Shown piece after piece: positions 26,425 through 46,130 of a stretch of DNA of 64,000 bases. Source of the stretch: Amphritea sp. HPY (lineage in GTDB: Bacteria > Pseudomonadota > Gammaproteobacteria > Pseudomonadales > Balneatricaceae); the NCBI RefSeq assembly GCF_050870985.1, contig NZ_CP194015.1, positions 1,941,407 through 2,005,406 on the forward strand. The letters run 5' to 3'. Numbering within the stretch: the stretch's first letter is position 1; each line of letters opens with the position of its first letter. The notes below the pieces were generated by a model. That model did no database searches. It was not told where the DNA came from and was given only the letters and a program-made list of their open reading frames with translations. The translations under genes and the position numbers were made by a program.

Positions 26425-26464
26425 GGATATAATGAAATAGGGGCTTTCAGAACGAAGGCCCCAT

Positions 26465-26485
26465 AAAGTAAGCAATAAGTAAGCA
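26465..26485. repeat. attL-like direct repeat of the island.
   Basis: Exact 21-mer shared with 45970-45990. Confidence 0.55.
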
Positions 26486-26743
26486 AATCAAATGCAAATT
26501 CAGGCAAAGATTGGACAAATATACTCTCTCTAACCTGCCAGCCATCTTTTCAATCTATCACCGATAGAGACCCCCACCCTCAAAAATTCACATCTCCGTA
26601 GCTCTGGTGCATCCCATCCACACATTTTTTTGGGATCTGAAAACTAACCGAGTCAGCCTTCATCCTCATAGATAATACCGATAGGATTATAGGAAGTTGA
26701 GTGGTCTGACAAGTTCAATATTAAGTAGGTCGAGCTCTAAGCT

Positions 26744-27151
26744 TCATTTCGACACAAAGTGGTAATACCACTTGCGTTCTTTATCCAATCCATCAAACTC
26801 GATTGAGTGTATTTCCCATCCAGCGGCCAAGAACTTCTGAACAGCCACTTCGCAATATTCATTTTCGTAGTCTATTGCAGGATCTACTCCTCCGGCGACG
26901 ATGGCTTGTGCATAAGCAGGGTGATCTAATGTAACACCTACAACCTGAAGAAACGCCCTATTTATTGTTAAGTCAAAATCCAATCGACACCTCATTAAAG
27001 CGTATCCCGGCGAGCCGCCTCCGCTTCTTGCTGCTTCTACGTTACGTGGAAAGGATACGGCGGAAATACTGATAACCACCATTAACGCAACAATTGATAT
27101 AATCAACAAAGACCATATTCTTATTTTTCTTGTGTACATAATGACCTCCAT
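26744..27151 (-). CDS. Hypothetical membrane-anchored protein (island cargo).
   Basis: 135-aa ORF with an N-terminal hydrophobic helix. No recognisable family. Confidence 0.35.
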   Translation of the reverse strand: MEVIMYTRKIRIWSLLIISIVALMVVISISAVSFPRNVEAARSGGGSPGYALMRCRLDFDLTINRAFLQVVGVTLDHPAYAQAIVAGGVDPAIDYENEYCEVAVQKFLAAGWEIHSIEFDGLDKERKWYYHFVSK

Positions 27152-27451
27152 AGAAAGCAGGAGTATTGAGTAAGTGCGTCATGTCATATAGTAGAACGCA
27201 CTGGTCAGTGTGAGCTCATCACCGCCTCGCCCACTACCAAAGTGTAGTAAAGAGATCAGCAAGACTTCGTTCAAGCCCCCCCCCATCAAAAACACATTAT
27301 CCGAATAGAACTAGACATCTCGTCCATACACCGGAGGGGAAAGTTAGAAACTCTGGCTTTTGCTTTGGTGCTCGAATACAACCTACCTAAATTAGATAGC
27401 AGAAACTTCAGGGACGATGCTCGCCAAGCAGGCACTAAGATAGCCCTACAC

Positions 27452-27733
27452 CTAATAACACGTAGTTGTGCAATTGTTATCACTATAACAGTATGTGTTA
27501 CAGATAATTCCGCCAGGGGTAGGGTTAATAGGCTGCAGTCCTTGTCTTGGTTGGGTTGGTGGCTGCCGTACCGCATCGTATGGATTTTGTAGCTCAGCAT
27601 AGTGATTCTCAATAAGTACTGGTTGTTGCACCAACATCAACTGCACGCTTATATTTGATGTTTGGGCTGCTACTGTCGAGAAACCCAAGAGACCTACAGT
27701 AAAGCACGCTGCTATAAAAAAGAATTTGATCAT
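27452..27733 (-). CDS. Small secreted Cys-rich protein of 93 aa.
   Basis: GGAGGG RBS 6 nt upstream of ATG 27733. Signal peptide MIKFFFIAACFTVGLLGFSTVAAQ. Q/P-rich linker. C-terminal IICNTYCYSDNNCTTTCY. Confidence 0.4.
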   Translation of the reverse strand: MIKFFFIAACFTVGLLGFSTVAAQTSNISVQLMLVQQPVLIENHYAELQNPYDAVRQPPTQPRQGLQPINPTPGGIICNTYCYSDNNCTTTCY

Positions 27734-28222
27734 GGAGAGTCCCTCCATTGCGGATTTTTTTATTATTTGTGTCTCTATTATTGATTGTAGTTTAAGGGCA
27801 CTGATGCATATATCGAAATGATAACCATGAGTCTCATTGACGACATTAATTTTGCGCTATTAACCGCTTGGGTTGACTCTTATTGACTAAGGTCTAGCGT
27901 CATACTTATGGTTGTAAAAGAGTGCCGTGAACTAATGCGCGGTACGTTATTCAACTCTGGCTTTTAAGTTTCTCTGCTTGAATTTCCTCTTTGTGTCATC
28001 AGCTGCCGTTGATGGACCTGGTCATATCGTTGGGTCTATGTGTGGCCGTAAGAGGCAGCAGTCGCCCAACAGCGTAATCCGCTGCAAGCTTCTAATAATC
28101 ATGAATATCTCGATTTCTACCGATACGTGAAGCACACCTCCAATTTCGTAGCTATATTTCAACGTAATATGTGTTCCCTTGTTGATTTCATGGACCTAAT
28201 TAACTAGCTGTAAAGGATATAT

Positions 28223-28672
28223 ATGAGAAAAATTCAGATCCTATATTTCATACTTATGGTAGCTTTTATTGCGGGATGTGCATCCACTGTTTTAGAAAGG
28301 AAAACATTCAAAAGTTACGCTATTGGTAAGCAATCAACCACTCCTATTGGTATTCCTTTTCTTATTGATCAAGATGGTTCCGTAGAAAAAGTAAAAACAT
28401 GGGTCGGGATACTTTATTCTCCAGATGGCTGGAAAATCGAAAAAAGGTATTCAGAGGACTTTGTCAGAAAAGAACTTATTTATTCTGGAAAATCAGGAGA
28501 TACCGTTGAAATAAGCTATAGGGAATTTCGAGGTGGCCTTGCCGCACCTGCTTTTTATCAAAACCTAAAATACGATCTTTTAGAGTCGAGAATAGTAACG
28601 TTTCAAAATTTCCGAGTAGATATCATTAATGCTGATAACCAGTCCATAACATACAGAATTGTAAGGGATTGA
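28223..28672 (+). CDS. Lipoprotein, function unknown.
   Basis: Signal peptide with lipobox (FIAGC). 149 aa. Confidence 0.5.
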   Translation: MRKIQILYFILMVAFIAGCASTVLERKTFKSYAIGKQSTTPIGIPFLIDQDGSVEKVKTWVGILYSPDGWKIEKRYSEDFVRKELIYSGKSGDTVEISYREFRGGLAAPAFYQNLKYDLLESRIVTFQNFRVDIINADNQSITYRIVRD

Positions 28673-29125
28673 ACTCCATTAACAACAATATTTATAAATG
28701 TAGACTGGATATTTAGCTACGATCCAAAGCCGGATTTGTTAAGCAGATAATTATTCAGAGCCACACACTGACAACTTATGTGTCATTGGCTACCGAAGGT
28801 GGCGGTAAGCCAGCGTGAAGTCGCTTTGTGCCAACAGCGGTCACGGATAGTAACCCTAAAGATAAGCCGCTATCGACCCAAACCAGACCTATCGCGTACC
28901 AGCTTCACAGACTGCTCTTTGGTAGCTAATGACACATACCCGCCGCTCGCTGAAGTTCAATAACGGCTACAGTTGAGGCAAAGTGTTGGCTTTTATTGGA
29001 CTCTTGGATGGTGTGGGTTGATTGTCCTCTCATCCTAGTAGACACAGCAAAAAGCAGGGAATAGTCTATAGACTCCTCCCTGCTTAACTCACATCAAGGG
29101 CAGCTCACATAGCGATCTATACGTC

Positions 29126-30241
29126 CTAGTGACACGTATCCTTGACAATATTAACGCTGTCAGTGCCTTCAATTGGAGTCCCGTCCAGAAGTTCACCATT
29201 CACCGTGGCGGAGGTCGTATCACCGTCAAGAGCTGCGATATCCGACGTTAAGTAATGACAGACGAGGTCATCAATAGAATCGTCATTGATATCTTCGTAG
29301 CTGCAAAGGGAGTGTGGGTCTTTCTTACCAACCACCTTAACAGCCGTCTCAGCAAATCTGAGGGTCTCGGTATTGATGTCGAATACGTTGAACGTATCAG
29401 AGCCCAGAATCCCAATCGGCACCGTGCCGTTGGAGCAAAGATTGATGCTGTTGGGGAAGCTGTCCGGATGGATGTCGATGGCAACCGAAATACTTACAGA
29501 ACATAATTCCTGTATTTCTTCATCAGAAAGGGCACGGTCATATATGCGCACATCATCAATTATTCCTTGAAATGCGCCATTCCCATTCCCCAAATGATTT
29601 GAGTTTTTGTAATTCCCAATTCTGAGAGGTTCGGGGCCGGTATAGGCTATGACAGAACCAATATTGCTACTTTCCTCCAACACCCCGTTAACGTTAATCT
29701 TGAGATTCGTCCCATCATAGATGCCCACAGCACAGTGCCACTCACCGGGGAGATATTCTCCAGAAGAACGAACCACGAAATCCAAGCCATCCGAAGCCCG
29801 CTCCAATTTATTCCCGAAAAACTCATCAGTCCCAGTTATCCAAAATAGACCAAATGTATCCTCATTTCCCCCATTGTATGCGATTTTCCAAATAATAGGA
29901 CCCGGTGTATCTTCTGAGATATCATCAGGTCTTACCCAAGCTATCAATGTCCAAGAATCGACTAAATCAAATGGGCGGGGGGGATCGCCCGGATTAGGTA
30001 CCTCAATATAATCATCCACACTAAGTCCACCAAACATATAGGCACTATCAGGATTACCAAACCTATCTGCTGTCGAAGTAGCACCAGATACCGTACCGTG
30101 ATGCATGTTTCCACTTGCATCATCAGCGTTTCCATTAAATGGGTAATAAGCTACCAAACCACTAGTCAAATCAGCAAATGTTAAATTGGTAGTAAAAAAA
30201 ATCATAGCTAGAGCTGAAACAAAGATTGAAAATTTTTTCAT
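29126..30241 (-). CDS. Secreted LamG/concanavalin-A-like jelly-roll domain protein with a conserved C-terminal domain of about 110 aa.
   Basis: GAGGAGG RBS before ATG 30241. Signal peptide MKKFSIFVSALAMIFF. The motif LVAYYPFNGNADDASGN...DDYIEV is typical of LamG-like proteins. The C-terminal domain is shared with the 38458-39372 protein. Confidence 0.6.
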   Translation of the reverse strand: MKKFSIFVSALAMIFFTTNLTFADLTSGLVAYYPFNGNADDASGNMHHGTVSGATSTADRFGNPDSAYMFGGLSVDDYIEVPNPGDPPRPFDLVDSWTLIAWVRPDDISEDTPGPIIWKIAYNGGNEDTFGLFWITGTDEFFGNKLERASDGLDFVVRSSGEYLPGEWHCAVGIYDGTNLKINVNGVLEESSNIGSVIAYTGPEPLRIGNYKNSNHLGNGNGAFQGIIDDVRIYDRALSDEEIQELCSVSISVAIDIHPDSFPNSINLCSNGTVPIGILGSDTFNVFDINTETLRFAETAVKVVGKKDPHSLCSYEDINDDSIDDLVCHYLTSDIAALDGDTTSATVNGELLDGTPIEGTDSVNIVKDTCH

Positions 30242-31049
30242 GTTTGCCTCCTCACAAGGCGCTCGCGCATCCACCCAGAAAAAAGAAACGCAGTAGCAAA
30301 CTGTTGTCGAAAAGTTGTTACAAGAAAAAAAGCAAAATATTTGCCATAAAAACTATAAGGGTTATTTTTCAGCGCATTAGGTCATCCCAAGGGTCGGTGC
30401 GGTTTCCCGTAGTTGTCAGCAATACTTTACAGTGGCCCGGTGCTGATATTGCCGCCGCCAGCGAAGTGAAGCCCATTGGCCTAGTTGGACAGCAACAGGA
30501 ATCGCATCGCGGCGCACAGCACTAGAACGCCGTTTATGGGGGCTGTCTCGGCTGAGAATGCGTCGATAGCAGAAGTAACCGACGGATATAAAAAGAGAAT
30601 CGTTGAGAGAATGCTCTGTCATTAGGGACTTATGGGCTGGCCCCAGAGCCTGATTCAATGATTACGCCCCGTTGGGATGAAGCTCTAGCAGCGATCAATC
30701 AAACTCCTGCGGCAGGACTTGAGCGGTTGGGCAGCGGCTGTTAAATTTTTGATACAGCTAAACAGACCATTTGTGGCTTCGCAGGGCAGATCCCTACCGG
30801 GAGTCATTACTAGCAGCCTTGGGCTGTAGGTCTGCTTAATGCGTAACCTGCCGCTCGGCTTTAGCACACTGAATGACTGAAATTCGCCGATAGCCGAAGT
30901 ACAGACAGGTCTCGCTCGAAGGTCAGCTTTGGGTCGTTAGCGGAAGTTCAAACAGGCCAGCCAGAAAGTCAGCTGTGTGCCAACAGCGGACATAATTGCA
31001 CTACCGACTCAGCTTGAATTAACGACTCCTTTCGACCTATAGCGGACTC

Positions 31050-32966
31050 TCACGGCTCTATGGGAAATTCTTCCCGATCCCTACGTTGTTGCTCAGCTCG
31101 GGTAAGATTACCATCTCTGTCACTCTGGTTCGGCCTGCTACCACCTAAGAAATCACCAAGAATTCCAGCTGCAGCGGCAAGATCATGATTACCTTGTTCA
31201 CCTCCAAGAGAAAATACACGATCGGGTACAAACTTGTGGGCATTGGTTAGACCTGTAGTCAAAATATCTGGATGATTCTCGAATAGGTCAAAGATTCGGC
31301 TTACTATTACCTCGAACTTTCGCAGTTCCACTACACGGTCCTCGCCAAGAACTTGCGCCTGTTCCTTCTGTCCTGTAGCTATCAAGCTAAGCTTATCTCT
31401 TTCCCCTTTACCTTCGTTTAGGCGAGCTATTGCAAATTGCTCTGAGCGTTTTACTTCAATTTCTGCCTCGACTAAATTAGGCTGTTTATCCGCCGTGGCA
31501 CGTGCTCTTTCGGTTTTAATACGCTCATCCTGTGCTAACCGTTCTTGGTTATATGACTTGGCAAGTTGTTGCGCAAGCTGTTCTCGCTTTCGAGCTACCA
31601 AAAGTTCAGGTGGTAAGTCTGGTTCGAGCAATCGCACCTCTTTTATATCCACTCCTGCTTTTACGCCCTCAACTTTAATAGTTTCTTCTATATTTGCTTC
31701 TAGTTCTGCACGGCGCTCTATCACATCCAATACCTGTGTACGGCGGTGTATTATCCTTGTTTTCGGATTACCGGTTTCGTCTAATATCTCCTCTCCATAT
31801 TTATCTAACACTGGTACTGTATAGCTAATAAAACCACCAGCAACATTTCGGACGATCGACTGAACAGAGGGGCTCATAATTCGATTCTCGACTTCCTTAA
31901 GCCCACCAACCGAAGCAATCACAAACGGGGCAAGCCTGGGAGTTACCTGAACAAGTACACGTAGTTGTTGAGCTACAGTCCAACCCTCAATCTTGAGAAA
32001 AACTGCTTCATCCACTGCCTTGCTTGGCACCTTTACGTACTCTACATGTTCGCTCTGACTAATACGGCCTTGCTGATCAACGGTAAGGTCTATACGACGT
32101 CGACTGAAACCCCCTCTGTATTCCCATGTTTGAACACGAGTGTCTATTAAGGTGACATGGTAAGCAGAACGATTGATGTAATACTTTCCTGGATTAAGAG
32201 CCCGCTCCCAAATGCCAATACATCCAACAGGAACAAGTGGAACCTCTAACTCGACGCCAATAATCCCTTCTTTGCTGATAGGTGAGCAATCCCTTGGTCT
32301 GTCTGTCTTCAAATTTCCAAAATCGACTCTAGAATGAACATTAGATTTGATCACTCCAACAAAGCCTTTAGGTATTTCCGTCACGGCTTTAAATGTTACA
32401 TCCCAAAGATATTTGTTCAGTCGGTGTTTACCAGGAGTCAGTACTGATGTCTGAGGTCCCTTTTGCCCACCATTTTTTAAGAAGTATGCTGCATCATATA
32501 ACCTCTGACTTGTTTCTCCAGATATAAATGCATCAGCGAATGTCTGATCTGGGCGTAACGGTTGACCGTCACGAGCCATAAGAAACCCATACTTACCTGA
32601 TGGTATTTCGATAACATCCATCACTTTAATATCATACAAGATATTCAAAAAAGGTCTGAAATGAAATCCAGGAGGTAAAATTTCAGCCTGCGGTCCCTTT
32701 TCGCCATCTACTGCGATAATTGATCCATATTTGAGATTACCGCCAGTGTAAATCTTAAACATATGACCTGTTTCGTCGTCTTCTATAAACACAAAAGATG
32801 TCAAAATGCAGACAAAAATAATGACAATAGAGCCTCCATATAGAAAAACACTATCAAAAAAATACTTCTTTCTTTCATCCTTAATTGAGATGAGCTTAGG
32901 CGCAATTAACATGCAAGCCAAGGCAAAAACTATAATCGCAATTAGTTCCATTTTAATATCCTCCAA
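31050..32966 (-). CDS. Flotillin-like SPFH/Band-7 domain membrane protein.
   Basis: 638 aa. Two N-terminal TM helices, a central SPFH-like region, and a long E/R/Q-rich coiled-coil C-terminus. The architecture resembles YqiK/FloT. Confidence 0.5.
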   Translation of the reverse strand: MEDIKMELIAIIVFALACMLIAPKLISIKDERKKYFFDSVFLYGGSIVIIFVCILTSFVFIEDDETGHMFKIYTGGNLKYGSIIAVDGEKGPQAEILPPGFHFRPFLNILYDIKVMDVIEIPSGKYGFLMARDGQPLRPDQTFADAFISGETSQRLYDAAYFLKNGGQKGPQTSVLTPGKHRLNKYLWDVTFKAVTEIPKGFVGVIKSNVHSRVDFGNLKTDRPRDCSPISKEGIIGVELEVPLVPVGCIGIWERALNPGKYYINRSAYHVTLIDTRVQTWEYRGGFSRRRIDLTVDQQGRISQSEHVEYVKVPSKAVDEAVFLKIEGWTVAQQLRVLVQVTPRLAPFVIASVGGLKEVENRIMSPSVQSIVRNVAGGFISYTVPVLDKYGEEILDETGNPKTRIIHRRTQVLDVIERRAELEANIEETIKVEGVKAGVDIKEVRLLEPDLPPELLVARKREQLAQQLAKSYNQERLAQDERIKTERARATADKQPNLVEAEIEVKRSEQFAIARLNEGKGERDKLSLIATGQKEQAQVLGEDRVVELRKFEVIVSRIFDLFENHPDILTTGLTNAHKFVPDRVFSLGGEQGNHDLAAAAGILGDFLGGSRPNQSDRDGNLTRAEQQRRDREEFPIEP

Positions 32967-33324
32967 GTTTTCATTAACCCCTGAATGGCTTATTAATAAA
33001 TATGCGACACTAGAGGGTATGTTATAAAATATTATTCTTACTCTTAATCCAGGAGTTATGAATAAAATGAAAATTTATAATAGGTTGCGTCTTAATTCAG
33101 ACTGCCTTTAGGAAAATGGGATGAGCTCCCCCTCTAACAGTATCTATGTTTCGTCAACTGCCGTTCATTATCTTAGTGAGATCGTTGGACCTATGTGTGA
33201 AGATAGGGACCGCAGTCGGCACAAAGCGGGTCTCTGACAACTCAGTAATAACACTTTGTTACGCCTAGTGGTTTGGAGGTGGCGCCATCAAGGTGTCGGT
33301 TAAGCTACTTGTTAAGAGGGCCTT

Positions 33325-33843
33325 CTATCTTTTCCTGTAAAACCACTCTTCGACTTGTTCACGCAACGCTTCACGTATAGCTGGATTGCTAAGTTCAGGG
33401 TGTGTTTCTTCTCCTTGAAGGATGCTATGAGCTTGTCGAACGTATGAGTTCGCTTTGCCATGACGTCCCTTACCAGCGCTTATGTTGGCTAGTACCATTA
33501 ATGAGTTAACGACTGATGTATTTGTTGGACCACACGCTTTTTTGAAAATGCCCAGCGCACGATTAGCATAACCCTCAGCTTCCTCCCACCGTTCCTGAAA
33601 CAAAATAGCAATCGCCAAGCTTATTAGCACAGGTGCGGTGTTACTCTCATCCCAATGAGTCTCAGCTAACTTAAGTGCTTGTCTTAGAACAATCTCTGCT
33701 TCTACCATTTTTCCATTTACCATATAGTCAGCGGCTTCTTCTTCAAGCTTCGTGACTTTCCACAGCGGGTATATATTCCAAAATAGAATTACTATACCAA
33801 CAGCTATGGTACCTAGAACCAATTTCCACCAAATCATTTTCAT
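33325..33843 (-). CDS. TPR-repeat protein with an N-terminal TM anchor.
   Basis: 172 aa, TPR-like helical repeats. Confidence 0.45.
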   Translation of the reverse strand: MKMIWWKLVLGTIAVGIVILFWNIYPLWKVTKLEEEAADYMVNGKMVEAEIVLRQALKLAETHWDESNTAPVLISLAIAILFQERWEEAEGYANRALGIFKKACGPTNTSVVNSLMVLANISAGKGRHGKANSYVRQAHSILQGEETHPELSNPAIREALREQVEEWFYRKR

Positions 33844-33867
33844 CTCCTAACGCCACGCATGCGATTG

Positions 33868-34611
33868 TTAGGTTTTCGGTTCCGAAATCACAGTTGACTC
33901 TATGTTTGGCAGATCTTTTGCGAGCTGGACATATGCTAAAGACATACTTCCTTCCTCAATATCCGAGACCTTCCATTCCCCATTGTCCATAGTAAAAGAC
34001 CAAACTGTTGATACTTCTTTGCATCGTTTGCTCCCTTCAACAACCTTGCCTGTATTTCTATCTTGAAGGTAGTCTCTCATTATTGCTTTTATTAAAATAA
34101 CAACCATAGAGTCTTCATGCTCTTTCCCTTCATTCCGATGAACAAATAGAAGGGGCTTAATGCAGGTAATTATATTTACATCACAAATATTTTTTAGCCC
34201 TTCTTTTTTCCATCTATCTAGATGCAGGAATTGTTGGTTCTGCCAATACCAATCTGTCATCCAGTTAGTGACACCAGAAAGATCTTCATTTTCCCAACCT
34301 GAGTGAACTCGGAAGAAACAATCTATTGCTCTTTCTTGGACCTTTAACCATTCAAATTTAGAACTATGTACCGCCATAAATCGTAAATCTTTTCGAGCAC
34401 GACGCTCCGATAGCTTCTCACGCAAAAAAACATAAGTGATTAACGGGAAAAAAATAATTGTCAGAATCCCGAGAACCACCTGCCCCCAAAATGTTTCAAA
34501 AACAACACTAGCGATTTTACCACCAGGTCCTGCAAATGCCGGATCAGCAAAAACAAATGCAGTTGCCACAACCAACACAACCATTACTACTACCTTTTTA
34601 TTCATATCCAT
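33868..34611 (-). CDS. Membrane-anchored protein, possibly with a Tim44-like/NTF2-like C-terminal domain.
   Basis: 247 aa. N-terminal signal or TM segment. The weak C-terminal resemblance (..WSFTMDNGEWKVSDIE..) was judged by eye only. Confidence 0.3.
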   Translation of the reverse strand: MDMNKKVVVMVVLVVATAFVFADPAFAGPGGKIASVVFETFWGQVVLGILTIIFFPLITYVFLREKLSERRARKDLRFMAVHSSKFEWLKVQERAIDCFFRVHSGWENEDLSGVTNWMTDWYWQNQQFLHLDRWKKEGLKNICDVNIITCIKPLLFVHRNEGKEHEDSMVVILIKAIMRDYLQDRNTGKVVEGSKRCKEVSTVWSFTMDNGEWKVSDIEEGSMSLAYVQLAKDLPNIESTVISEPKT

Positions 34612-34728
34612 TTCTCCAATGTATACGTCTAACAGCTAAAGTGTGCTAAAACGGTATTTGTGTCGCTAGAGGGTAGTGCTTACAATGTTATAAGCAGAAC
34701 TAATAGCACTCTGCCAGAGAGTTAACTG

Positions 34729-35670
34729 ATGGAGTTTAGAGACCCTTATAAAGTAATGGATCTGAAAGCACTGAGGTGCTTCTGGGCCACTGCTAAACAC
34801 GGTAGCCTGACACAAGCGGGCGTTGAACTTGGCATCTCAGAAGCCGCTATCTCCCAACGGCTAAAATCTCTGGAGTCCTATCTGGATTCCAAGCTTTACG
34901 AAACAAGAGGAGGCAGGTTCAAGCTGACTGCCGCTGGACATCAGACATTCGATCTTGCCGTTCTCGTGTTTGATCAGTTACAGGCCTTCGAGAGCAGCAT
35001 TCATGATAACGATCAAATTGCCAATATCGTATTGGCATGCCCCGAATCAATTATTCGCTATGCTTTGCCTGACGTGATGCATCAATTTGCGCGAAATCAT
35101 CCCCTCTGCGAAGTAAAGATCCTAAGCCGTACGCCAAAAGACACTATTGAATTGGTTAAATGCAACGAAGCGGATTTCGGAATCATCCCCGATCGAATAC
35201 TTCCAAAAGGTATTAGTTTTTTGCCATGGCGAACCTATGCTGCTTACCTGATCATGCCAATCAATCACCCGGTAGCGTGTGGTAACCAGTCAAATTTTCA
35301 GGATATTGTTAATGAATTAAAGCGCAAGAAATATCGTTTTATCGCTAATGAATTAGACGAACATCAAAACCAAAAAATAGCCAAAGGCATGCAAGAAGCA
35401 GGACTGGATTATGAGGTCAGTCTGGAAGTCGGTTCAATCGATACAGTAAAACTGTATGTAGCAAGGGGACACGGAATCGCAATCGTTTCCGGGCTCTGCC
35501 TCACAGAGATTGATAAGCATTCGATATCTGCAATCAAAATTCCAAACGGCTACTGCAGTGATACGCTCTATGGCGTGATATTGCGGGACAATAAATGCGT
35601 CTCTAGACTGGTAAAAACCTTATTAGAAGCATTGGGTATGATGCCAATAGATGAAATTTGCAGTCGCTGA
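34729..35670 (+). CDS. LysR-family transcriptional regulator (island-encoded).
   Basis: HTH LKALRCFWATAKHGSLTQAGVELGISEAAISQRLKSLE. 313 aa. Confidence 0.85.
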   Translation: MEFRDPYKVMDLKALRCFWATAKHGSLTQAGVELGISEAAISQRLKSLESYLDSKLYETRGGRFKLTAAGHQTFDLAVLVFDQLQAFESSIHDNDQIANIVLACPESIIRYALPDVMHQFARNHPLCEVKILSRTPKDTIELVKCNEADFGIIPDRILPKGISFLPWRTYAAYLIMPINHPVACGNQSNFQDIVNELKRKKYRFIANELDEHQNQKIAKGMQEAGLDYEVSLEVGSIDTVKLYVARGHGIAIVSGLCLTEIDKHSISAIKIPNGYCSDTLYGVILRDNKCVSRLVKTLLEALGMMPIDEICSR

Positions 35671-35764
35671 TACGCCCGGATAGATTTTAGTACCACCTGC
35701 TATCGAACTGACCATTGATCCATAGCTGCTCCGGTTCTGTTTGGTCGCTTACTGACACAAAGAA

Positions 35765-37237
35765 TCATTCGCCTGCTGTGTTTCTCAGCAACTGTACGTA
35801 AAATCGAATTATCTCGCCGTAATTCACAATGCTGATTCTTTCGTCCTTTCCATGAATTCGTTTCAGATCTTGCTTTTCCAGGCGCATAGGAATAAAGCGA
35901 AAACTCTGTTCAGCGATCTTTTCATAATGTTTTGAGTCGGTGCCCCCTATCACCAGGCTAGGAGCAACCACCGTATCTGGAAATACCTGTCGAATGGTTT
36001 TGTGCAACGCCTGGAACTCAGATGATTCATGATCTGAAACAGAAGAGGCCTCCACCGAATGACCAAGTTTATTAATCGTGATGTCTAAGCCACTAACGGT
36101 CTGCTTCACGTGGTCTAATACCCCCTGAATTGTATCACCTGGAAGGATTCGGAAGTTGATAATCGCTCTGGCCTGTTCAGGGATCACATTCTCCTTTGTT
36201 CCCGTCTCAGGCAGCATTGTCGGCGTTGTAGTTGTCCGGATGATTGCATTGGTCGCGGGTGAGCCTTCCAATTGTGACAACAATAGCGGTTCGAAAAGCC
36301 AGCGATTAGCCACCACTACGCGCATGCCGATAGACATTTCTGAAGCCAGATATTCAAAAATCCCGGCAGCCGGCTGCCTTAACTCCGCGGGCATCCGGTT
36401 ACTTTCCAGGCGATAAATGGCCCTTGCAAGTTTCTCGATAGCCGTTGGGTGTTTCGGCCTGGAAGAATGTCCCCCTTCACCGATCGCAGTCAACTCAAGT
36501 GTTAAATACCCTTTCTCGGCCAGAGCAATCAGTGCAACCGGCTTTGCTACTCCAGGTACGACGTCCTTAACAATGGCAGAGCCTTCGTCCAGAGTAAATT
36601 CTGCCAGTACCCCACGCTCCTGAAGCAAGTTCGCAATCTTTGCTGCACCGTTCTGCCCCCCGGTTTCCTCATCATGCCCGAAGGCAAGATAAACTGTGCG
36701 CTGAGGCTGGAATCCTTGTTTGATTAGGATTTCTACTGCTTCAAGGGATGCTGTTATCGCCAGCTTGACGTCCAGACTCCCACGACCCCATATATATCCA
36801 TCCGCTATATGCCCATCGAATGGTGGGTAGGTCCAGTCACCCTCCTTTCCACTTACACTTGGCACGACGTCCATATGAGCGATCAAGACGATTGGCTTCA
36901 GCGTCTTAGAAGATCCTTTCCAGGTATAAAGCAGGCTGAAGTTGTTAACCACTTCCTTACTTAGTGTCGTGTGGGCTCGAGGAAAAGCCTTTTCGAGGTA
37001 CTGATGTAGTTTAAGAAACTCCGCACCATTTCTTTGCGAGGGGTCTTGGTAAGAGATCGTCTTGTAGCGGATGGCTTCAGCCAGGCGCCTAGCAGCTTGA
37101 TCTACAATTAGGGTAGTCGGTACTACCGGCTCGACAATAATTTGCCGATTGCTTATTAGAGAGGTTCGAAAGAGAATAACACCGAGAAAAATCAAAATAA
37201 TTCCGGTGATCACTGCTGCCATGAGCTTCATGTGCAT
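35765..37237 (-). CDS. M20/M25/M40-family metallopeptidase, membrane-anchored.
   Basis: 490 aa. N-terminal TM helix. M20 metal-binding motifs (..HMDVV.., ..GHDEETGG.., dimerisation domain). Confidence 0.8.
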   Translation of the reverse strand: MHMKLMAAVITGIILIFLGVILFRTSLISNRQIIVEPVVPTTLIVDQAARRLAEAIRYKTISYQDPSQRNGAEFLKLHQYLEKAFPRAHTTLSKEVVNNFSLLYTWKGSSKTLKPIVLIAHMDVVPSVSGKEGDWTYPPFDGHIADGYIWGRGSLDVKLAITASLEAVEILIKQGFQPQRTVYLAFGHDEETGGQNGAAKIANLLQERGVLAEFTLDEGSAIVKDVVPGVAKPVALIALAEKGYLTLELTAIGEGGHSSRPKHPTAIEKLARAIYRLESNRMPAELRQPAAGIFEYLASEMSIGMRVVVANRWLFEPLLLSQLEGSPATNAIIRTTTTPTMLPETGTKENVIPEQARAIINFRILPGDTIQGVLDHVKQTVSGLDITINKLGHSVEASSVSDHESSEFQALHKTIRQVFPDTVVAPSLVIGGTDSKHYEKIAEQSFRFIPMRLEKQDLKRIHGKDERISIVNYGEIIRFYVQLLRNTAGE

Positions 37238-37608
37238 CTACTCTGTGATCGCTAGGTCCAGTGTTCAGCCAATAGCGCTGACTGATTGAGTTAGTGTAGA
37301 CCTGTGACGCACAATCTTCTAAGGGCTCAAAAGCCGGATATTTCCAGTATCAACCGGAAGTGATACTGGGGAGGACTCAGCGGAAGGGTATGCATACCTG
37401 GCTCCAAGATCCGCTTTGGGTCGTAAGCGGAAGTTCAAACAAGCCAGCCAGAAAGTCCGCTGTGTGCCAAGAGCGGACATGGCGCAGTACGACAGGATTA
37501 GACTCTTATCGACCCAAAGGAGACCTCCGAACCAAGCCTACTTTCAACCCGGGGCAGGCAGTGTTCCCTTCAGGCTATGGAGTTACCTTTCTCGAACTTA
37601 AATACGCG

Positions 37609-38169
37609 TTACTGAACACCAACCGGTGCCGCGCATGCTATTGGTAATACTAAGGTACATGGGAAGCGATCCATACGGTCGTACGGAGCGATGGACAATC
37701 CAGTTAACGCAGACTCGTTTGAGTATAAGTCACACGAAAGGAAATCCATGGTCGATTGTGCTGACGTGCTAGGCTCGCTCAGGACTACAACGCGGGTCTC
37801 GAACGCTTGAAATAAATTGTCCGATCGAATGATTAATTCGACATGATCCGGTTGAATCCATGCCCGTTCGGTTACTACACTTGAAATGGCGGGCGTCCGA
37901 AGCGCATCTAATGCTGTAGCCGCTCGGGCTAAGGGACCGTATTCGCCGCACCATAAATTCGCTGCGGACGGTCCGAAAACGGTAACCCCTTCTAAGTTGT
38001 ACCGTACGCGCCCGGTGGTGCGGTGAGTTGTTATTCCGACGACCCTATATTCCGTACCAATGGTATCGTTGCCGCGCTGACTCGGAGGGGCTGCATGCGC
38101 ACAGGGCGGGAGGATCAATGGTAGGCACAGAGCAATACATACTACGACTTTCTGCTGGTAAAGTGACAT
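37609..38169 (-). CDS. Secreted hypothetical protein.
   Basis: 186 aa. Signal peptide MSLYQQKVVVCIALCLPLILPPCAHA. No family recognised. Confidence 0.4.
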   Translation of the reverse strand: MSLYQQKVVVCIALCLPLILPPCAHAAPPSQRGNDTIGTEYRVVGITTHRTTGRVRYNLEGVTVFGPSAANLWCGEYGPLARAATALDALRTPAISSVVTERAWIQPDHVELIIRSDNLFQAFETRVVVLSEPSTSAQSTMDFLSCDLYSNESALTGLSIAPYDRMDRFPCTLVLPIACAAPVGVQ

Positions 38170-38457
38170 GTGAAAGCCCCTAAACTTAAAATAGTTGTGA
38201 ATTAAATCCTTGGTAGTGAGACACGCATAACTTACATCGCTCAGTTGTTACGCTGAACTTGTACTTGTCATTATAGTTAGAGTTGAAGCACTGATGTTTC
38301 TATTAACTAAAACTGCCACTATTAATACCCTTTCTATACCAGGTCGCCTGCTGGCGGTTAATTTCTATCAAATCACCACCTTCTTGTTTTGACAGCCCGG
38401 CCTCTTGAACTTTACTTACTAGTACACGTCGAACTGTCACATACAATAGGTATCTGT

Positions 38458-39372
38458 ATGAAAAGCCGCCTGCTCATAGCCACCTTACTTTTTTTGGGTG
38501 CAGCAAATGTATTCAGTGCGCCAACAACGAGTATCCTCGATTTCGAAGTCCTGCGGCACGATGATGCCAATATAAGCGTTCACGGGCCAGAGTATGTCGA
38601 GGACGGTTTTCGGCTGAAAGCGCAACACTCCGAACCTGGAAATCCACTTCGACTCAATACGCTAGGCACACTTCAGCCTGGATTTCCGGGATCAACCGCA
38701 CTGTATCAAGGCGTAGTCTTGGGAGAAATCATACTCACTGAGGTTGACGGTAAGCCCTTCGATCTGCTTTCGATTCAGCTCGCTGAACTACCGGGTCTCG
38801 ATACGTCGGGGCTGCCAATCAATAGCGGGCCTTTCGATGTTACCTTCTTTGGACAGCAAGTTGACGGTTCGTTAGTTACGAAGACTTTCATCGTCGACGG
38901 GTTCCTAACGCTAAACACCTACTCATTTTCTGGATTCACAGACTTGCTGTCAGTCAACTGGTTTCAGGGTGGCGGTGACATACCGACTCACCAGTTCGAT
39001 AACATCACTGTCGCTGTGACCCCTTTAACAGTAGATATTGATATAAAACCTGGCAGCGACCCGAACTGCTTTAATACCAATGGCCATGGTGTGATTCCTG
39101 TGGCCATTCTCGGTAATGATAATTTTGATGTGCGTAATATCGATCAAAGCAGCCTGTCTTTTTCCGGGCAGGAGGTTCGGATGAGAGGGAATAAAGGTCC
39201 ATTATGTGGGGAGGAAGATTCTAACAGCGACGGATTCTTCGATCTGGTCTGCCATTTCGAAGACGACTCCACGAACTGGTCTCCGGGCAGCTTTGGCAAT
39301 GCAACACTCACCGGAGTGATGCTCGATGGTACCGAGTTCGAGGGCACCGATTCGATCTGCATTGTTCTGTAG
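38458..39372 (+). CDS. Secreted protein carrying the same C-terminal ~110-aa domain as the LamG protein.
   Basis: Start moved to MKSRLLIATLLFLGAANVFSA, which is a signal peptide. The C-terminus DIDIKPGSDPNCFNTNGHGVIPVAILGNDNFDV...LVCHF...LDGTEFEGTDSICIV aligns with AIDIHPDSFPNSINLCSNGTVPIGILGSDTFNV...LVCHY...LDGTPIEGTDSVNIV. Confidence 0.5.
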   Translation: MKSRLLIATLLFLGAANVFSAPTTSILDFEVLRHDDANISVHGPEYVEDGFRLKAQHSEPGNPLRLNTLGTLQPGFPGSTALYQGVVLGEIILTEVDGKPFDLLSIQLAELPGLDTSGLPINSGPFDVTFFGQQVDGSLVTKTFIVDGFLTLNTYSFSGFTDLLSVNWFQGGGDIPTHQFDNITVAVTPLTVDIDIKPGSDPNCFNTNGHGVIPVAILGNDNFDVRNIDQSSLSFSGQEVRMRGNKGPLCGEEDSNSDGFFDLVCHFEDDSTNWSPGSFGNATLTGVMLDGTEFEGTDSICIVL

Positions 39373-39584
39373 CCAATCCTGAATCATAAAGTCATTGATT
39401 GAGACTAGTCCTCAACGGTGGTTAATTATTCTTGTCGAGGGTCTCCTAAGTGCCGAAAGCATACTTAACTATGACAGCTGCTCAAAGCCAAACTAGCTAT
39501 GAATAAGAAACTAAAACAAAAGATGCCTCAAAGATAGGGAATCGTCTCAAGTTCAGCTAATAACAGACTAAATAGCTGGTTTTT

Positions 39585-40181
39585 TTATTCTGTTGGTAGG
39601 CCAATCGATAAGGGAGCAGAAAAGCCACCATTTGGTACGCCAGTTATCACTGGATCGTTTGGCATCGCTTCGACAGCTGGACCGCCAAAGTTACCGCATG
39701 ACCCATTGGGAGCTAGGGAGTAGAAAGAACCGTTGACCTCGACTGGATTAATTGGAATATAAAATAAGTCTGTGACTTCCCCATTTACAATCGCAGGGGG
39801 GTATTGAAAGAGCTGTCGTGGTGTCGCATCACTTTGTCGGAACGATTCATACCAGGACGTAGAAAGTCTCACATAGCGTGGTATATCAGAACAGTCGGAT
39901 GTCATGTAAAGAAGATCTTTACTGGAAAAAGTACCTAAAGGTGTGATCTCAAATAAATACCCTGTTGAGCTCATGGCGAGTACGATTCCTTCTTCACTAA
40001 CTTCGCTTATGAGCTCTCGAACATCCACAACCACTGCTACAGCTTTTCCTGAGGAGTTAATTAACGCTGCGGGTGATAGAGTCTCCTGCTTTTTATTTGC
40101 GTGAGATGGGGGCTCACTCAATGCGAGGGATGAAGCTATGAATGCAGCGAAGGAAATCAAACCTAACTTAATTTTATTCAT
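39585..40181 (-). CDS. Secreted hypothetical protein.
   Basis: 198 aa, signal peptide MNKIKLGLISFAAFIASSLALS. Confidence 0.4.
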   Translation of the reverse strand: MNKIKLGLISFAAFIASSLALSEPPSHANKKQETLSPAALINSSGKAVAVVVDVRELISEVSEEGIVLAMSSTGYLFEITPLGTFSSKDLLYMTSDCSDIPRYVRLSTSWYESFRQSDATPRQLFQYPPAIVNGEVTDLFYIPINPVEVNGSFYSLAPNGSCGNFGGPAVEAMPNDPVITGVPNGGFSAPLSIGLPTE

Positions 40182-41074
40182 TTCGATGACTCCTTATCAC
40201 GAGGAGTTGATACTGAGTTCGATATACTAATTAGCCTAGTACATATGTAGTTGATCAGCGTGCTATCCACAAAAGACAAGCCCCCTTGTAGTGGTCAAGT
40301 TCATGATGGCACTAAAGCCCTACAGGAAGCAGCGGATTCTGCATCTCTGAAGCTGGACCATCTGGATCGGGTGACTGTGCAGGGGTAAAACAGGGGACCG
40401 AGCTCCCTCACTCTGCCAGCCTCTGGGCAAAACTGGTTGTGGGGATGGTTACGCCCGCAAACTGCAGACTGCCGCATTGCGATTGGAAGTTGCACTCGAT
40501 GTTCTGCATTAGAAATAAAAGCCACCGCTGAGATCCGCTTTGTGCCTTTTGCTGAAGCTTTGCGCAGCAAGCCAATAAGACCGCTCTGTGCCGTTAGCTG
40601 AAGTCCAAGCCGCCTTAGTGACATGTCCGTTTTGTGTCGCTAGCTGCCGTCCAGGGGCTGTTCAGGCCCTTAGAAATGGCTATTACTATGAGTGTCTAGT
40701 CAGGCTTGATGTAACGCCCACAGTTTTCATTACATTACTTAATAGCCTAATATAATATACTTTTTCAATATCTATCAATAGTATGCGTATCAACACGCTA
40801 CATTATATTAGCTGGCTCTAATATAGAAGCAATTCATGAATGTCAGTAGCCAAATTCCAACGAAAATAGATCTGTATAACGCCATTGCATAAGACTAATG
40901 GCTCATTAAATAGGTCCACCTTTACCCACACGCACACCCTCGTTGAAAAACATTGAGCATACTTATCAGCCAAATAAGGTTGTATAAAAGCTCATCAATA
41001 CTCGATTTCACAGACCGAATTCTTCATTTTATTCTCCAGCTTCCCCTTTTTGAAACCCTACCCATCTACCTTCC

Positions 41075-41182
41075 GCATGGTTACTGGGCTGTAGAGAATT
41101 TTGAAACTCTACTTCAAACTACTTGGTAGAGTTTTCTATATCGCTAGAGAGGGCATGGTTACTTGCATGTAGAGAGGTAGAG
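41075..41182. repeat. Iteron-like direct and inverted repeats at the 3' end of the Prim-Pol gene.
   Basis: GCATGGTTACTNGNNTGTAGAGA occurs twice, at 41075-41098 and 41153-41176. There are six (G)TAGAG or CTCTAC copies and a GTAGAGAATTTTGAAACTCTAC hairpin. Confidence 0.4.
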
Positions 41183-43248
41183 CTTTGATCAGAGGGATTG
41201 GGAAGATAACGTGCAAAAGCGTCTTCGAACATGGCTAATTCATAGCCATTTTTGTTCACGGTATCAATCTTTATCTGGCGAGGCTTAATCCCATAATGTT
41301 TGAGTAACCTTGCCAATGAGTTCGTAGTCAACTGTTTGCCATGATTCCATTCAGCCCAAGGACGATCCTCTAAACAGACTAACTCTCGAACTAAATCCAT
41401 TGAGTGAATCCGGCTCGATTGTTGTCCCGCAAATATCTTTTGGATATCTTGTAATAGCTGTGGCCCAATACTATCTTCATCATCCTTAACTCTCTCCAGT
41501 GCCATCATTGCCTCCCTGGCTCGAATGGGCCATTCACCTCCTAGGCAATCAGCAATGGCGAGTATTGGAAGCCAATTATCTTTGGCTCTATCGCTATTAA
41601 CTTCAGGAATCTGAGGCTCTGCAGTTTTCAAATTCTCAAAATGATCTTGAGCCCACCGAAGACACTGGCGTCGCAAGTTCTTGTTCTGTTCGAACAAGTC
41701 CAGAGGTAACCGGTCAACACTTTCACTCTGTAACTTCCGGCGCAACAATATCATAATCGACCGATCGCGAATGGTATCTGGAGGAGACTTTATCATAGCG
41801 ATAGCCATTGCTGACCATGTACTAAATCGCTTAGGCATTAGATGCTTACCATCCCCTACAGTCCTAACTACAAATGCAGTACTCCGTGTATGCCCAGAAT
41901 TAATTATTCCGCGTAATTCTTCATTACCCTTCATAAAAGTATCTCCCTCATCAATTAATAAGGTCGAATGCCATTGATCGATCGCACGAAAAATAGCTGA
42001 TGGAGTGATATTGGATGCTATGAGTGATTTGTTAACTAAGGCCCCCAATACTTCTAAGGTAGTTGTCTTACCACAACGCTTTTCAGGAGAAGATAGACAC
42101 ACTTTCGGAAAGATTCTGAAAGCATTTAAGCAGTAAGTCCCCAGTGTCCAAATAGTTAACGCTTCAGCCGCACCTGGTGGGAGTAGCGTGTAACTTTTAA
42201 AGTTGTTAAGAATAGATTCCGCAATTATCTGACCGTCTACTGAATCATGCCAAGGCTCTATGCCATCACTGAACTCGGCACTGTCTTCCTTAGCCATATC
42301 ATCAACTTTTGATTCCGACTTCGGTACTGATCTAGGCTGTAGCATGCCAGCGGAAAAACCACTATTGATTGTTCGATCCGCTTCATCAGTGTGTAAACCA
42401 CACAAACAGCCTGCATTCATTAACATCCCCCTGGCTGTTTCTTCTTTTAATTCTCCACTCCCTACAAGCTGACCAGCGGAAAATGCTGCACGATTAAGCA
42501 TATCGTTCCTGCAGCCCTCTAACGCCTTAGCAACGCTTTCACATCCACGTTCAAGAGCAGCTAAAGCGTAAGAGCTTCCATTACCTATAACCTGCTGAGA
42601 GGGCTCTGAGGCTGCCTGTTCATGTGAGGGTTCCTTTTTCACAATCATATTCAGTAACCATTCTGGAGGTTGAGGCAGAGGAGTATTGAACAAATCTGTA
42701 AGAAATTCGTACCGATTTCCGTTTGAATGAATGGATGGAGGAGCGACAATGTAACCACCATCACCCCTTACATCAAAGCAACTTTTAACATTACAACGAG
42801 TTCGAATTGGTACGTCATCAGGAATAACAAAGAATAGGTGTAGCCCTTTCCCTGTTTGCACGACAGGTCCTGCAGGAAGCTCTCCTCCGTTGTCCGAAAG
42901 CAACTTTCCCCAGACTTCTAAATTATCAACATCAACGACAAAAAAACCATTGATCTTTCCTGTACATAAACCAATGTTGTAATCATGTCCGTTCCACATC
43001 TGTTTAACTAATTCAGGATCCTTTTCAGCATCTTTAAATCCATGCTTCGTTGCAGGTTGCTTGCCCTTAGGTTTCAGAGGAAAAACAGAATATCCCTGCT
43101 CAGCGTATTGGACCGCAGCTTCCGAAAGAGATGTACAAGATTCTGAACTCGAACTCTCTGGTTCGGAGGAGTGCAACACACTATCTTTGGTCTGCTGATC
43201 AAGGAGGTTACTGTCTTGTGTGATTATGTTCTTTTCCATTGTCATCAT
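41119..43248 (-). CDS. Bifunctional DNA primase/polymerase (Prim-Pol) fused to a P-loop NTPase. Island replication protein of the P4-alpha/D5 class.
   Basis: 709 aa. The N-terminal Prim-Pol signature is YSVFPLKPKGKQPATKHGFKDA...NIGLCTGKINGFFVVDVDN. The Walker A motif is SPEKRCGKTTTL. Confidence 0.75.
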   Translation of the reverse strand: MMTMEKNIITQDSNLLDQQTKDSVLHSSEPESSSSESCTSLSEAAVQYAEQGYSVFPLKPKGKQPATKHGFKDAEKDPELVKQMWNGHDYNIGLCTGKINGFFVVDVDNLEVWGKLLSDNGGELPAGPVVQTGKGLHLFFVIPDDVPIRTRCNVKSCFDVRGDGGYIVAPPSIHSNGNRYEFLTDLFNTPLPQPPEWLLNMIVKKEPSHEQAASEPSQQVIGNGSSYALAALERGCESVAKALEGCRNDMLNRAAFSAGQLVGSGELKEETARGMLMNAGCLCGLHTDEADRTINSGFSAGMLQPRSVPKSESKVDDMAKEDSAEFSDGIEPWHDSVDGQIIAESILNNFKSYTLLPPGAAEALTIWTLGTYCLNAFRIFPKVCLSSPEKRCGKTTTLEVLGALVNKSLIASNITPSAIFRAIDQWHSTLLIDEGDTFMKGNEELRGIINSGHTRSTAFVVRTVGDGKHLMPKRFSTWSAMAIAMIKSPPDTIRDRSIMILLRRKLQSESVDRLPLDLFEQNKNLRRQCLRWAQDHFENLKTAEPQIPEVNSDRAKDNWLPILAIADCLGGEWPIRAREAMMALERVKDDEDSIGPQLLQDIQKIFAGQQSSRIHSMDLVRELVCLEDRPWAEWNHGKQLTTNSLARLLKHYGIKPRQIKIDTVNKNGYELAMFEDAFARYLPNPSDQSSTSLHASNHALSSDIENSTK

Positions 43249-43487
43249 GCAGCTCCTTTACCCGAATCATATAGTTCCCCATCACGTGCAGTATCTACTC
43301 GGCTCTGCTCGATAAACGCCCGATAATCAGCCATCCGATACCGAACTGAAGATCCAATTTTTATGAATGGAATGCCTTGTTTGAGATAGCGATCATTGCG
43401 TAGCCGAGACAGAGAAAAGCCTGTCAGCTCCGCGATTTGATGTTCATCTAGTAAAACGTCAGTTTCGTTGTGTATGTTGTTATTCAT
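43245..43487 (-). CDS. AlpA-family phage transcriptional regulator/excisionase.
   Basis: GGAGG RBS before ATG 43487. The HTH LDEHQIAELTGFSLSRLRNDRYLKQGIPFIKIGSSVRYRMAD is typical of AlpA/Xis. The stop overlaps the Prim-Pol start. Confidence 0.7.
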   Translation of the reverse strand: MNNNIHNETDVLLDEHQIAELTGFSLSRLRNDRYLKQGIPFIKIGSSVRYRMADYRAFIEQSRVDTARDGELYDSGKGAA

Positions 43488-43637
43488 GTATGCCTCCATC
43501 CACATAGGTTTGTATTGAATGATGGTCTACAAAGTCAGCGGCTAATAGATAGCAGGGATTGGTAGGTTAGGGTAAAAAGGGATGGGTAGGTTAACTGAGG
43601 GTTACTGCTGGCGGGGCTTTCAAGGATTGGTAGGTTT

Positions 43638-44582: not shown

Positions 44583-44638
44583 ATCAGGCCATGATAATGA
44601 CGACTATTCGGAACATATCCTCAACTTGCTAAAACCAG

Positions 44639-45946: not shown

Positions 45947-45969
45947 ACAGCTACCAATTGATCAACCGA

Positions 45970-45990
45970 AAAGTAAGCAATAAGTAAGCA
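45970..45990. repeat. attR-like direct repeat of the island, followed by extra AAGTAAGCA-like motifs.
   Basis: Exact 21-mer shared with 26465-26485. AAGTAAGCA-like motifs recur at 46006 and about 46065. Confidence 0.55.
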
Positions 45991-46130
45991 GATTGGATGA
46001 AGAAGTAAGCAAACAGGAATAAGCAGCAAGAAATCAAACTTACTTAACGTGCTGTATATTAAGAATAGATGTGAAAGCAAGTAAGCGCAAAGAATCAACT
46101 TTACATACTACCCGAATATGTAAAAGAGCA

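Follow-up and report, generated by a model that had tools for sequence, protein, structure and literature searches.

Inverted repeats are already on record for P2-like coliphages, in the Z (fun) region that separates gene G from FI. In the GenBank entry for P2-EC46 (accession number AJ512680), the depositor annotated "left/right inverted repeat" features of ~90–113 nt around two foreign open reading frames (ORFs). The G/FI interval is known as "moron position 2" (PMC3573123) and as a defence hotspot (PMC9122126). Rapid cargo swapping between elements has been described at P2/P4 hotspots (PMC9122126, 2022; Moura de Sousa et al. 2026, PMC13586616); both papers call the exchange mechanism unknown and neither mentions hairpins or palindromes. 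Here we analyzed a 64,000-nt stretch of Amphritea sp. HPY (RefSeq assembly GCF_050870985.1, contig NZ_CP194015.1, positions 1,941,407 to 2,005,406; hereafter the window), which contains an integrase-bearing island with short hairpin repeats between its cargo genes. These repeats belong to the same sequence family as those of the P2 Z region (P2 GTCCGCTCTGTGCCAAGAGCAGAC vs window GTCCGCTGTGTGCCAAGAGCGGAC). Judged from comparison of the copies, we put the probability at about 0.65 that the island repeats are mostly decayed copies of a widespread palindrome which, in mobile DNA, is located where accessory-gene cassettes end or adjoin one another. The P2 Z region and the window both have two loop types, repeats at the edges of accessory genes within a mobile element, and no linked recombinase. 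They differ in host and element (the window is from a marine Oceanospirillaceae bacterium and the element is an integrase/PrimPol island rather than a phage), in copy number (six mostly degenerate clusters with extra inverted units in the window, one pair in P2), and in the second loop type (GGGTCG in the window, GAGCGA in the P2 Z region).

The repeat unit is ~24–28 bp long and has the form GTCCGCT-N10-AGCGGAC; alternatively, it can be read as 11-6-11 (ATGTCCGCTTT GGGTCA AAAGCGGACAT). The loop is TGTGCCA in A-type units and TGGGTCA in B-type units (TGAGCGA in enterobacteria). Junctions of neighbouring cassettes have a direct doublet, made up of a B-type unit and an A-type unit 42–46 bp apart. 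A weight-matrix scan of the window found about 16 related units in six clusters, all at 27,982–40,650 in the island cargo, plus two weak single units; every unit is in an intergenic gap. A hidden Markov model (HMM) built only from alphaproteobacterial copies (114 Hyphomicrobiales doublets) gave 12 window matches at E < 0.2, all at 27,980–40,650, the best three with E = 4e-14, 3e-13 and 3e-7. The same HMM found no unit in the 39 kb of core flanks in the window and none in 65 kb from A. atlantica, A. balenae and an Amphritea metagenome-assembled genome (MAG). The units are as follows (PWM, position weight matrix score).

27982–28075: cluster 1, a degenerate unit (+) at 27987–28005 and an A-type unit (−) at 28056–28074; a relative of cluster 4; neither unit folds.
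28775–28941: cluster 2, a nested palindrome of four units, (+) at ~28779, A-type (+) at 28822–28840, B-type (−) at 28867–28885 and (−) at 28923–28941, in the gap where the lipoprotein and LamG genes converge, 3' end to 3' end.
30918–31047: cluster 3, a doublet of B-type (+) 30925–30943 and A-type (+) 30971–30989, 46 bp apart (nhmmer E = 3e-13), and an extra inverted B-like unit at 31026–31044, 5 nt from the SPFH stop codon.
33137–33235: cluster 4, a degenerate unit (+) at 33142–33160 and an A-type unit (−) at 33210–33228, reading GGCACAAAGCGG on the + strand.
37404–37530: cluster 5, the best preserved, a doublet of B-type (+) 37412–37430 and A-type (+) 37458–37476, 46 bp apart (nhmmer E = 4e-14), and an extra inverted B-like unit at 37503–37521.
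40529–40650, + strand: cluster 6, three direct degenerate units at 40536, 40582 and 40628 with a 46-bp period (E = 3e-7), between the cargo and the PrimPol gene; none folds.
34654–34672, + strand: a doubtful weak single unit in the Tim44-like/LysR divergent intergenic region (PWM 11.0; missed by nhmmer).
35746–35764, − strand: a doubtful weak single unit (PWM 10.3; missed by nhmmer).

Two long intergenic regions, 30275–31049 (775 nt) and 40182–41118 (937 nt), hold one repeat cluster each; an A+T-rich stretch with several promoter-like sites is found at ~40700–40900 in the second. Two ORFs, 37360–37647 (+, 95 aa) and 40301–40624 (−, 107 aa), overlap clusters 5 and 6. They have no family matches and are probably not genes.

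The repeat positions in the original prediction were confirmed to within 1–5 nt, and a repeat search recovered every pairing listed there. The segments 30892–30993 and 37379–37480 are 83% identical over 102 nt (~92% in a 51-nt core), 27988–28044 and 33143–33199 are 75% identical, the copies at 28823, 30972 and 37459 show 86–90% mutual identity, and 28871–28890 matches 37507–37526 at 90%. Inverted matches also link the repeat loci. The alignment held beyond chance when rechecked computationally. The core 12-mer CCGCTTTGTGCC occurs 13 times with up to two mismatches vs 5.5 expected, a count reached in none of 100 shuffles; with up to one mismatch all occurrences are within 28,821–40,592. A two-unit pattern gave three matches in the window vs zero expected. 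The three tandem degenerate units are present at 40,533–40,670 with a period of 46 bp (the units had been noted as about 48 bp long), and their similarity is confined to the first ~24 nt.

Outside the island, we scanned one genome per species for the doublet pattern (chance expectation far below 1, as estimated from the specified bases). Nearly all of the matches listed were from Hyphomicrobiales (Pseudolabrys, Bradyrhizobium, Hyphomicrobium and Methyloceanibacter MAGs). They include at least 114 doublets, with at least 9 to 11 stretches in single Pseudolabrys MAGs. The alphaproteobacterial consensus is ATGTCCGCTTTGGGTCAnAAGCGGACAT, a ~18-nt spacer and ATGTCCGCTTTGTGCCAAnAGCGGACAT. The two units of a doublet are 46 bp apart in the window; the corresponding distance was 45 bp in at least 96 doublets from alphaproteobacteria and 42 bp in 20 from enterobacteria or proviruses. 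The window A units share with the consensus positions that were left free in the search pattern (the GTC that precedes the core, the CCAA of the loop and the GGACAT that follows), which supports common descent over ascertainment. Window units 30968–30991 and 37455–37478 fit the GTCCGCT-N10-AGCGGAC palindrome with the loop TGTGCCA; the latter (the A unit of cluster 5) is identical at 23 of 24 positions to a copy on a Mixta plasmid and also fits the consensus of the P2, E. coli and provirus copies. The repeats had been described as private to the island. This is correct inside the window and incorrect elsewhere, the family being widespread in Hyphomicrobiales, enterobacteria, phages and plasmids. 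The idea of an island with a repeat family of its own is therefore not supported, since the family is common to Alpha- and Gammaproteobacteria. A metagenome scan for the window-specific subfamily found one singlet, in a 65% G+C contig.

Several observations on the Hyphomicrobiales copies are reported here. Many doublets of Pseudolabrys-like MAGs are next to a convergent gene, the stop codon of which comes within ~10 nt after the doublet and the product of which ends in ...ADEVIE* (loci L216, L129, L133, L150, L157, L192, L199, L213, L218, L223, L228 and L230). These convergent genes may encode ABC-type substrate-binding proteins. In L216, doublets at 4052–4130 and 5187–5265 bracket one ~1-kb gene, as if the members of a paralogous gene family were themselves enclosed by hairpins. 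Related Hyphomicrobiales repeats translate to MSALGQKRT.../VRFVPIADI-like peptides, which are often annotated as hypothetical proteins. A few family members are found in MAGs labelled Acidobacteriota, Pyrinomonadaceae, beta- or gammaproteobacteria; these odd labels may be binning errors. Five doublet-pattern matches (L160, L184, L195, L212 and L234, from Lysobacter, Dehalococcoidia, Chloroflexi, Solirubrobacterales and Streptomyces) proved to be unrelated tandem or coding repeats.

The high copy number in Hyphomicrobiales raises the alternative that the window units are ordinary host elements of the repetitive extragenic palindrome (REP) or bacterial interspersed mosaic element (BIME) type, that is, a chromosome-wide HPY family, spread by a REP-associated tyrosine transposase (RAYT) or stabilising mRNA, that is dense in the island by chance. 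The family does act as a high-copy intergenic palindrome in Hyphomicrobiales, as REPs, BIMEs and REP doublets forming hairpins (REPINs) do in some genomes, and its stems are strongly conserved there (88–93% paired vs 35–45% with the partner slid). Like the CGTC-type REPs (PMC3733652, PMC3116915), it has no evident dedicated transposase, and our view of HPY is that of the window. However, six clusters are found in 13 kb of cargo and none in the 39 kb of core and the 65 kb of the three other Amphritea genomes. In the large family direct dimers prevail: among the matches listed, at least 96 direct 45-bp neighbour pairs were counted vs only two inverted ones, unlike REPINs and BIMEs. With no Y1-transposase gene among the window ORFs scanned, RAYT-type inverted dimers with a RAYT gene were rejected. 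A RAYT-type tag was also rejected, with GTAG and CGTC tags defined as in PMC3733652. The consensus ATGTCCGCT...AGCGGACAT is without GTAG, its (A)TGTC pairs with GACA(T) in the stem, and there is no unpaired CGTC. The loop is 6–10 nt, not 4–5 nt. The enterobacterial copies are few (median one per E. coli genome) and all fetched contexts are mobile elements. The consensus sequences of Br-REP1 and Br-REP2 of Bradyrhizobium differ from the hairpin family, no matching sequence was found in the supplements of the CGTC-REP paper, and literature searches with the repeat sequences and their spurious translations returned nothing relevant. We regard a host REP family as distinctly unlikely.

The enterobacterial copies were found by three routes. 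A BLAST search of plasmids with cluster 5 detected copies in Mixta, Pantoea and Raoultella, and a search with the consensus detected copies on plasmids of Pantoea, Duffyella, Klebsiella and E. coli. A 32-nt A-type query was found in 3,628 of 5,426 complete E. coli genomes (median one place per genome, maximum eight); K-12 CP4-6 has no copy. Every E. coli context that was fetched is a mobile element, and the query is also present in P2-like and lambdoid phages. In phage P2, GTCCGCTCTGTGCCAAGAGCAGAC follows directly after gene G and the inverted GTCTGCTTTGAGCGAGGAGCGGAC precedes FI. The title of the 2004 study behind the deposited Z-region repeats reportedly invokes site-specific recombination. 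Of 120 viral contigs returned by a loose pattern, 48 carry the full palindrome. The contexts are the P2 G/FI moron site, the lambdoid region after a Ren-like gene, CP4-like islands and plasmids. A sequence search of relatives had been proposed to see whether the units are restricted to the island: they are absent in 65 kb of three Amphritea genomes, yet present in enterobacterial plasmids, E. coli and phages.

Comparison of these E. coli contexts provides evidence on the role of the hairpins. A P2-like prophage of E. coli cM2a (L256) and a CP4-like island of strain E-ge-1 (L257) have a single block in common, 3,445 bp long and 99.4% identical, which starts 24 nt before the left hairpin and stops no more than one base away from where the right hairpin ends. 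An island of strain SE11 (L253) has exactly one hairpin-to-hairpin segment in common with L256 (2642–4028 vs 6001–7385, 98.5% identical). In P2 vs L256 and in P2-EC46 vs P2, homology is lost and regained at the hairpins. The two largest context groups of IMG/VR proviruses are P2 G/FI and the lambdoid region that follows the Ren-like gene. Within these groups, identity is 84–91% over the 60 nt upstream of the hairpin and 27–39% over the 60 nt downstream; in these alignments the hairpins divide conserved backbone from variable cargo. An E. coli cassette is ordered as an A-type hairpin (hpA), cargo, and an inverted second-type hairpin (hpC), and neighbouring enterobacterial cassettes are joined by a 42-bp-spaced doublet (n = 20), the same geometry as that of the 45–46-bp doublets of Hyphomicrobiales and the window. 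The E. coli copies are found exactly at the P2/P4 hotspots and in "cryptic islands" with common cargo. Thus homology between different mobile elements starts and stops within a few bases of the hairpins, which supports the cassette-boundary idea.

The same data can be read in terms of non-autonomous transposon ends, in which each cassette is a miniature transposon with the palindrome inside terminal inverted repeats and the transposase is encoded elsewhere. The P2 records do name left and right inverted repeats of ~90–113 nt, and an outer flank, ATCTGACAG, is common to both P2 ends. Cluster 2 (162 nt) likewise has inverted arms of 22 nt at its ends, and a whole two-cassette block has moved between phage and island. 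That block was moved without a target-site duplication, though, and no transposase was detected in or beside the cassettes examined. Single cassettes are swapped at internal hairpins (L253 vs L256), which looks like site-to-site recombination and not like transposition of a fixed unit. In addition, transposable elements are almost absent from P2/P4 hotspots (2026 NAR study, PMC13586616). We consider transposon ends unlikely.

Each core had been predicted to form a 6–7-bp stem. This holds only in part: 3 of the 16 window units fold better than shuffled sequences (30966–30995, 37407–37436 and 37453–37482; −6.4 to −7.4 kcal/mol, z −3.1 to −4.4). The A unit of cluster 3 has −6.4 kcal/mol and z −3.1, and the cluster 5 units have z −4.4 and −3.3. 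The other 13 fold no better than shuffles, and we conclude that most units are relics. Cluster 2 as a whole (162 nt) is a long imperfect palindrome (−29.9 kcal/mol, z −3.5) whose 22-nt terminal inverted arms are 91% complementary. A structure and covariance check across copies had also been proposed. RNAalifold paired the two doublet units with each other, an artefact of repetition; the local hairpins of the large family are conserved at the stem pairing given above. In P2 and lambdoid backbones, GGCACAGAG or GGCACAGG is found ~20–25 nt upstream of the A-type hairpin and is complementary to its CTCTGTGCC or TTGTGCC (viral-contig consensus; L256 5977–6024); an alternative pairing that includes the A-type hairpin loop is possible.

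Another explanation is that the repeats are functional RNA or transcription signals such as terminators, mRNA 3'-end stabilisers or small RNAs, and processing or termination signals and sRNA genes were among the roles suggested in the original prediction. Several clusters are just past stop codons, at a distance of 5 nt for unit 31026 (SPFH gene) and of 80–90 nt for clusters 4 and 5. REP-like hairpins in 3' untranslated regions can stabilise E. coli mRNA (PMC5082802). Clusters 1 and 6, on the other hand, are away from 3' ends. None of the 10 terminator-like sites in 26400–41200 overlaps a unit, and no unit has a T-run. Rfam, run in gathering and E-value modes on the window and on alphaproteobacterial and E. 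coli/P2 loci, assigned no family. The stem positions left free by the search pattern show about as many G-U as A-C mismatches across 113 related doublets (37 vs 41), which gives no sign of selection on one RNA strand. Together with the 13 units that do not fold, these results leave the processing, termination and sRNA roles unsupported; an RNA function in general is very unlikely.

The units had also been proposed as binding sites for the island LysR regulator. Operators for LysR or another island DNA-binding protein would agree with the 11-6-11 geometry, which suits a dimeric DNA-binding protein, and with the one weak unit (34654) in the LysR divergent promoter region. The strong units, however, are far from the LysR gene. 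Phage P2, lambdoid prophages and E. coli islands carry the same sequence, as do hundreds of alphaproteobacterial chromosomal sites, all without this regulator. LysR binding is not supported, and an operator role of any kind is extremely improbable.

We return to cassette boundaries as the preferred reading for the Amphritea island. By analogy with E. coli, the same process would have built this island: its cargo may have been put together by successive insertion or exchange of hairpin-bounded cassettes, before or during its residence in this lineage, and the units would now be mostly scars. The putative cassette blocks are the lipoprotein gene, the LamG gene, the SPFH gene, TPR-Tim44-LysR-M20, and three genes without assigned function. 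The doublets 30925/30971 and 37412/37458 would be cassette junctions, and the remaining clusters would be junctions or ends in a more advanced state of decay. The best candidate is the SPFH gene, which is flanked, in its own orientation, by a B-type unit 5 nt past its stop codon and an A-type unit ~245 nt before its start:

31026–33228, − strand: best candidate single-gene cassette, the SPFH/Band-7 gene (31050–32966) with the B-type unit at its 3' end and the A-type unit (33210–33228) on its 5' side, both inverted.

Compared with L256/L257, this layout appears to be the hpA...hpC layout of the E. coli cassettes.

Several findings weigh against this reading. The island has no alignable relative (PrimPol at most 58% identity, M20 at most 76%), so that no breakpoint could be mapped in the window. 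The support for cassette boundaries of a gene-capture mechanism, as suggested in the original prediction, is comparative and comes from the E. coli and P2 breakpoints. The cargo genes other than SPFH have mixed unit orientations and fit the hpA...hpC layout poorly, and the inverted B-like units at 28867, 31026 and 37503 are not seen at enterobacterial junctions. The loop of the first hairpin differs by lineage (GGGTCG in the window vs GAGCGA in enterobacteria), and 13 of the 16 window units showed no folding above shuffles. No recombinase linked to the hairpins was identified, no target-site duplication flanks the block common to L256 and L257, and the island cargo has no recognised defence gene, which sets it apart from the P2/P4 defence hotspots. 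The units could also be spread host-wide in HPY, as their absence covers 39 kb of core flanks in a 5.4-Mb genome.

Crossing-over at the hairpins could take place in two ways. One would be by a trans-acting site-specific or hairpin-specific enzyme encoded outside the cassettes; the other by short-homology recombination on the conserved ~25-bp palindrome, e.g., by phage annealing proteins. Read as 11-6-11, the unit could serve as the core site of a tyrosine recombinase or be bound by a dimeric protein, and the ~25-bp conserved identity would be equally suitable for short-homology recombination by phage annealing proteins. We tentatively propose, as a possibility that we would not yet call probable, that the palindromes are sites of a widespread, integron-like cassette-exchange system with its enzyme in trans, through which phages, satellite-like islands, plasmids and chromosomes of Alpha- and Gammaproteobacteria would exchange accessory and defence genes. 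The sites would have proliferated massively in Hyphomicrobiales chromosomes, and the Amphritea island would be a cassette array of this system. Integron attC arrays resemble the family in having short structured sites between promoter-poor accessory genes, cassette arrays and neighbour junctions. The attC sites themselves were ruled out: the window has no IntI (the sole integrase is P4-type) and no attC cores (RYYYAAC...GTTRRRY), and attC sites are 57–141 bp with one per junction, whereas the family has units of 24–28 bp and two hairpins per junction. In the pdif modules of Acinetobacter plasmids, 11-6-11 palindromic XerC/D sites bound small mobile gene modules and the recombinase is encoded outside the module. 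The hairpin family presumably resembles them in having 11-6-11 sites around modules, and is not known to be similar to dif in sequence.

A conserved 24–28-bp palindrome within a few bases of breakpoints at P2/P4 hotspots gives a concrete sequence handle on cargo movement between unrelated elements. It opens up an enzyme search by co-occurrence, excision and insertion tests with defined substrates, and computational delimiting of cassettes in any genome. For the window, an odd repeat family becomes a map of cargo assembly. If true, a trans-acting cassette-exchange system would explain the swapping at P2/P4-type hotspots. Apart from the P2 Z-region repeats annotated in AJ512680, we found, in the literature searched, no published account of the family's apparent spread to lambdoid prophages, CP4-like islands and plasmids, of its presence in an Oceanospirillaceae island, or of its mass amplification in Hyphomicrobiales.

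The island itself is 19.5 kb long (26,465–45,990) and is delimited by perfect 21-bp direct repeats AAAGTAAGCAATAAGTAAGCA. The G+C content drops from ~0.50 to 0.40–0.47 across roughly 26–50 kb of the window. The window is syntenic with A. balenae up to the ETF-QO stop codon (26424) and again from 53775 on. The integration site is a non-tRNA site directly 3' of the ETF-QO terminator hairpin GGGGCTTTCAGAACGAAGGCCCC, and no tRNA gene was found in the window. The backbone consists of a P4-type integrase, an AlpA-like gene and a Prim-Pol/DUF3631 gene:

26465–26485: left attachment repeat AAAGTAAGCAATAAGTAAGCA, a perfect 21-bp match to 45970–45990, directly 3' of the ETF-QO gene and its terminator.
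41119–43248, − strand: Prim-Pol/DUF3631 replication protein (Pfam).
43245–43505, − strand: AlpA-like excisionase/regulator (PHROG 66, E = 1.4e-5).
44639–45946, − strand: P4-type tyrosine integrase (Pfam Arm-DNA-bind_3, Phage_int_M and Phage_integrase).
45970–45990: right attachment repeat AAAGTAAGCAATAAGTAAGCA, a perfect 21-bp direct repeat.

The integrase is predicted to work on the 21-bp att repeats rather than on the hairpins. The cargo encodes the lipoprotein, LamG, SPFH, TPR, Tim44-like, LysR and M20 peptidase proteins, and the three proteins without assigned function. Most of these genes had no functional match in PADLOC, PHROGs or NCBIfam. The M20 peptidase and PrimPol proteins match HPY proteins at 100% identity, and the ETF-QO of the window is Amphritea-like. 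The PrimPol relatives (HPY's own protein excluded) are at most 58% identical, and the SPFH protein has no relative among viral contigs. The closest M20 homologs are 73–76% identical; the contigs fetched (those of the 73% homologs) have a different gene context and no repeats. The small lipoprotein of the first cassette (28223–28672) matches PHROG 1353, a phage-borne family without assigned function (E = 2.7e-20), which fits a moron-type cargo gene.

A second stretch that is variable in comparison with A. balenae is found at 46000–53700, outside the integrase island, and is without hairpin units. It encodes an OmdA-like protein, a caspase-like Peptidase_C14 protein, and a GGDEF/CHASE8 and YfiR-like pair. 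The Peptidase_C14 gene (47628–49097) is in the kilobases of lowest G+C content (0.36–0.40). The position of a TonB receptor in the window differs from that in A. balenae.

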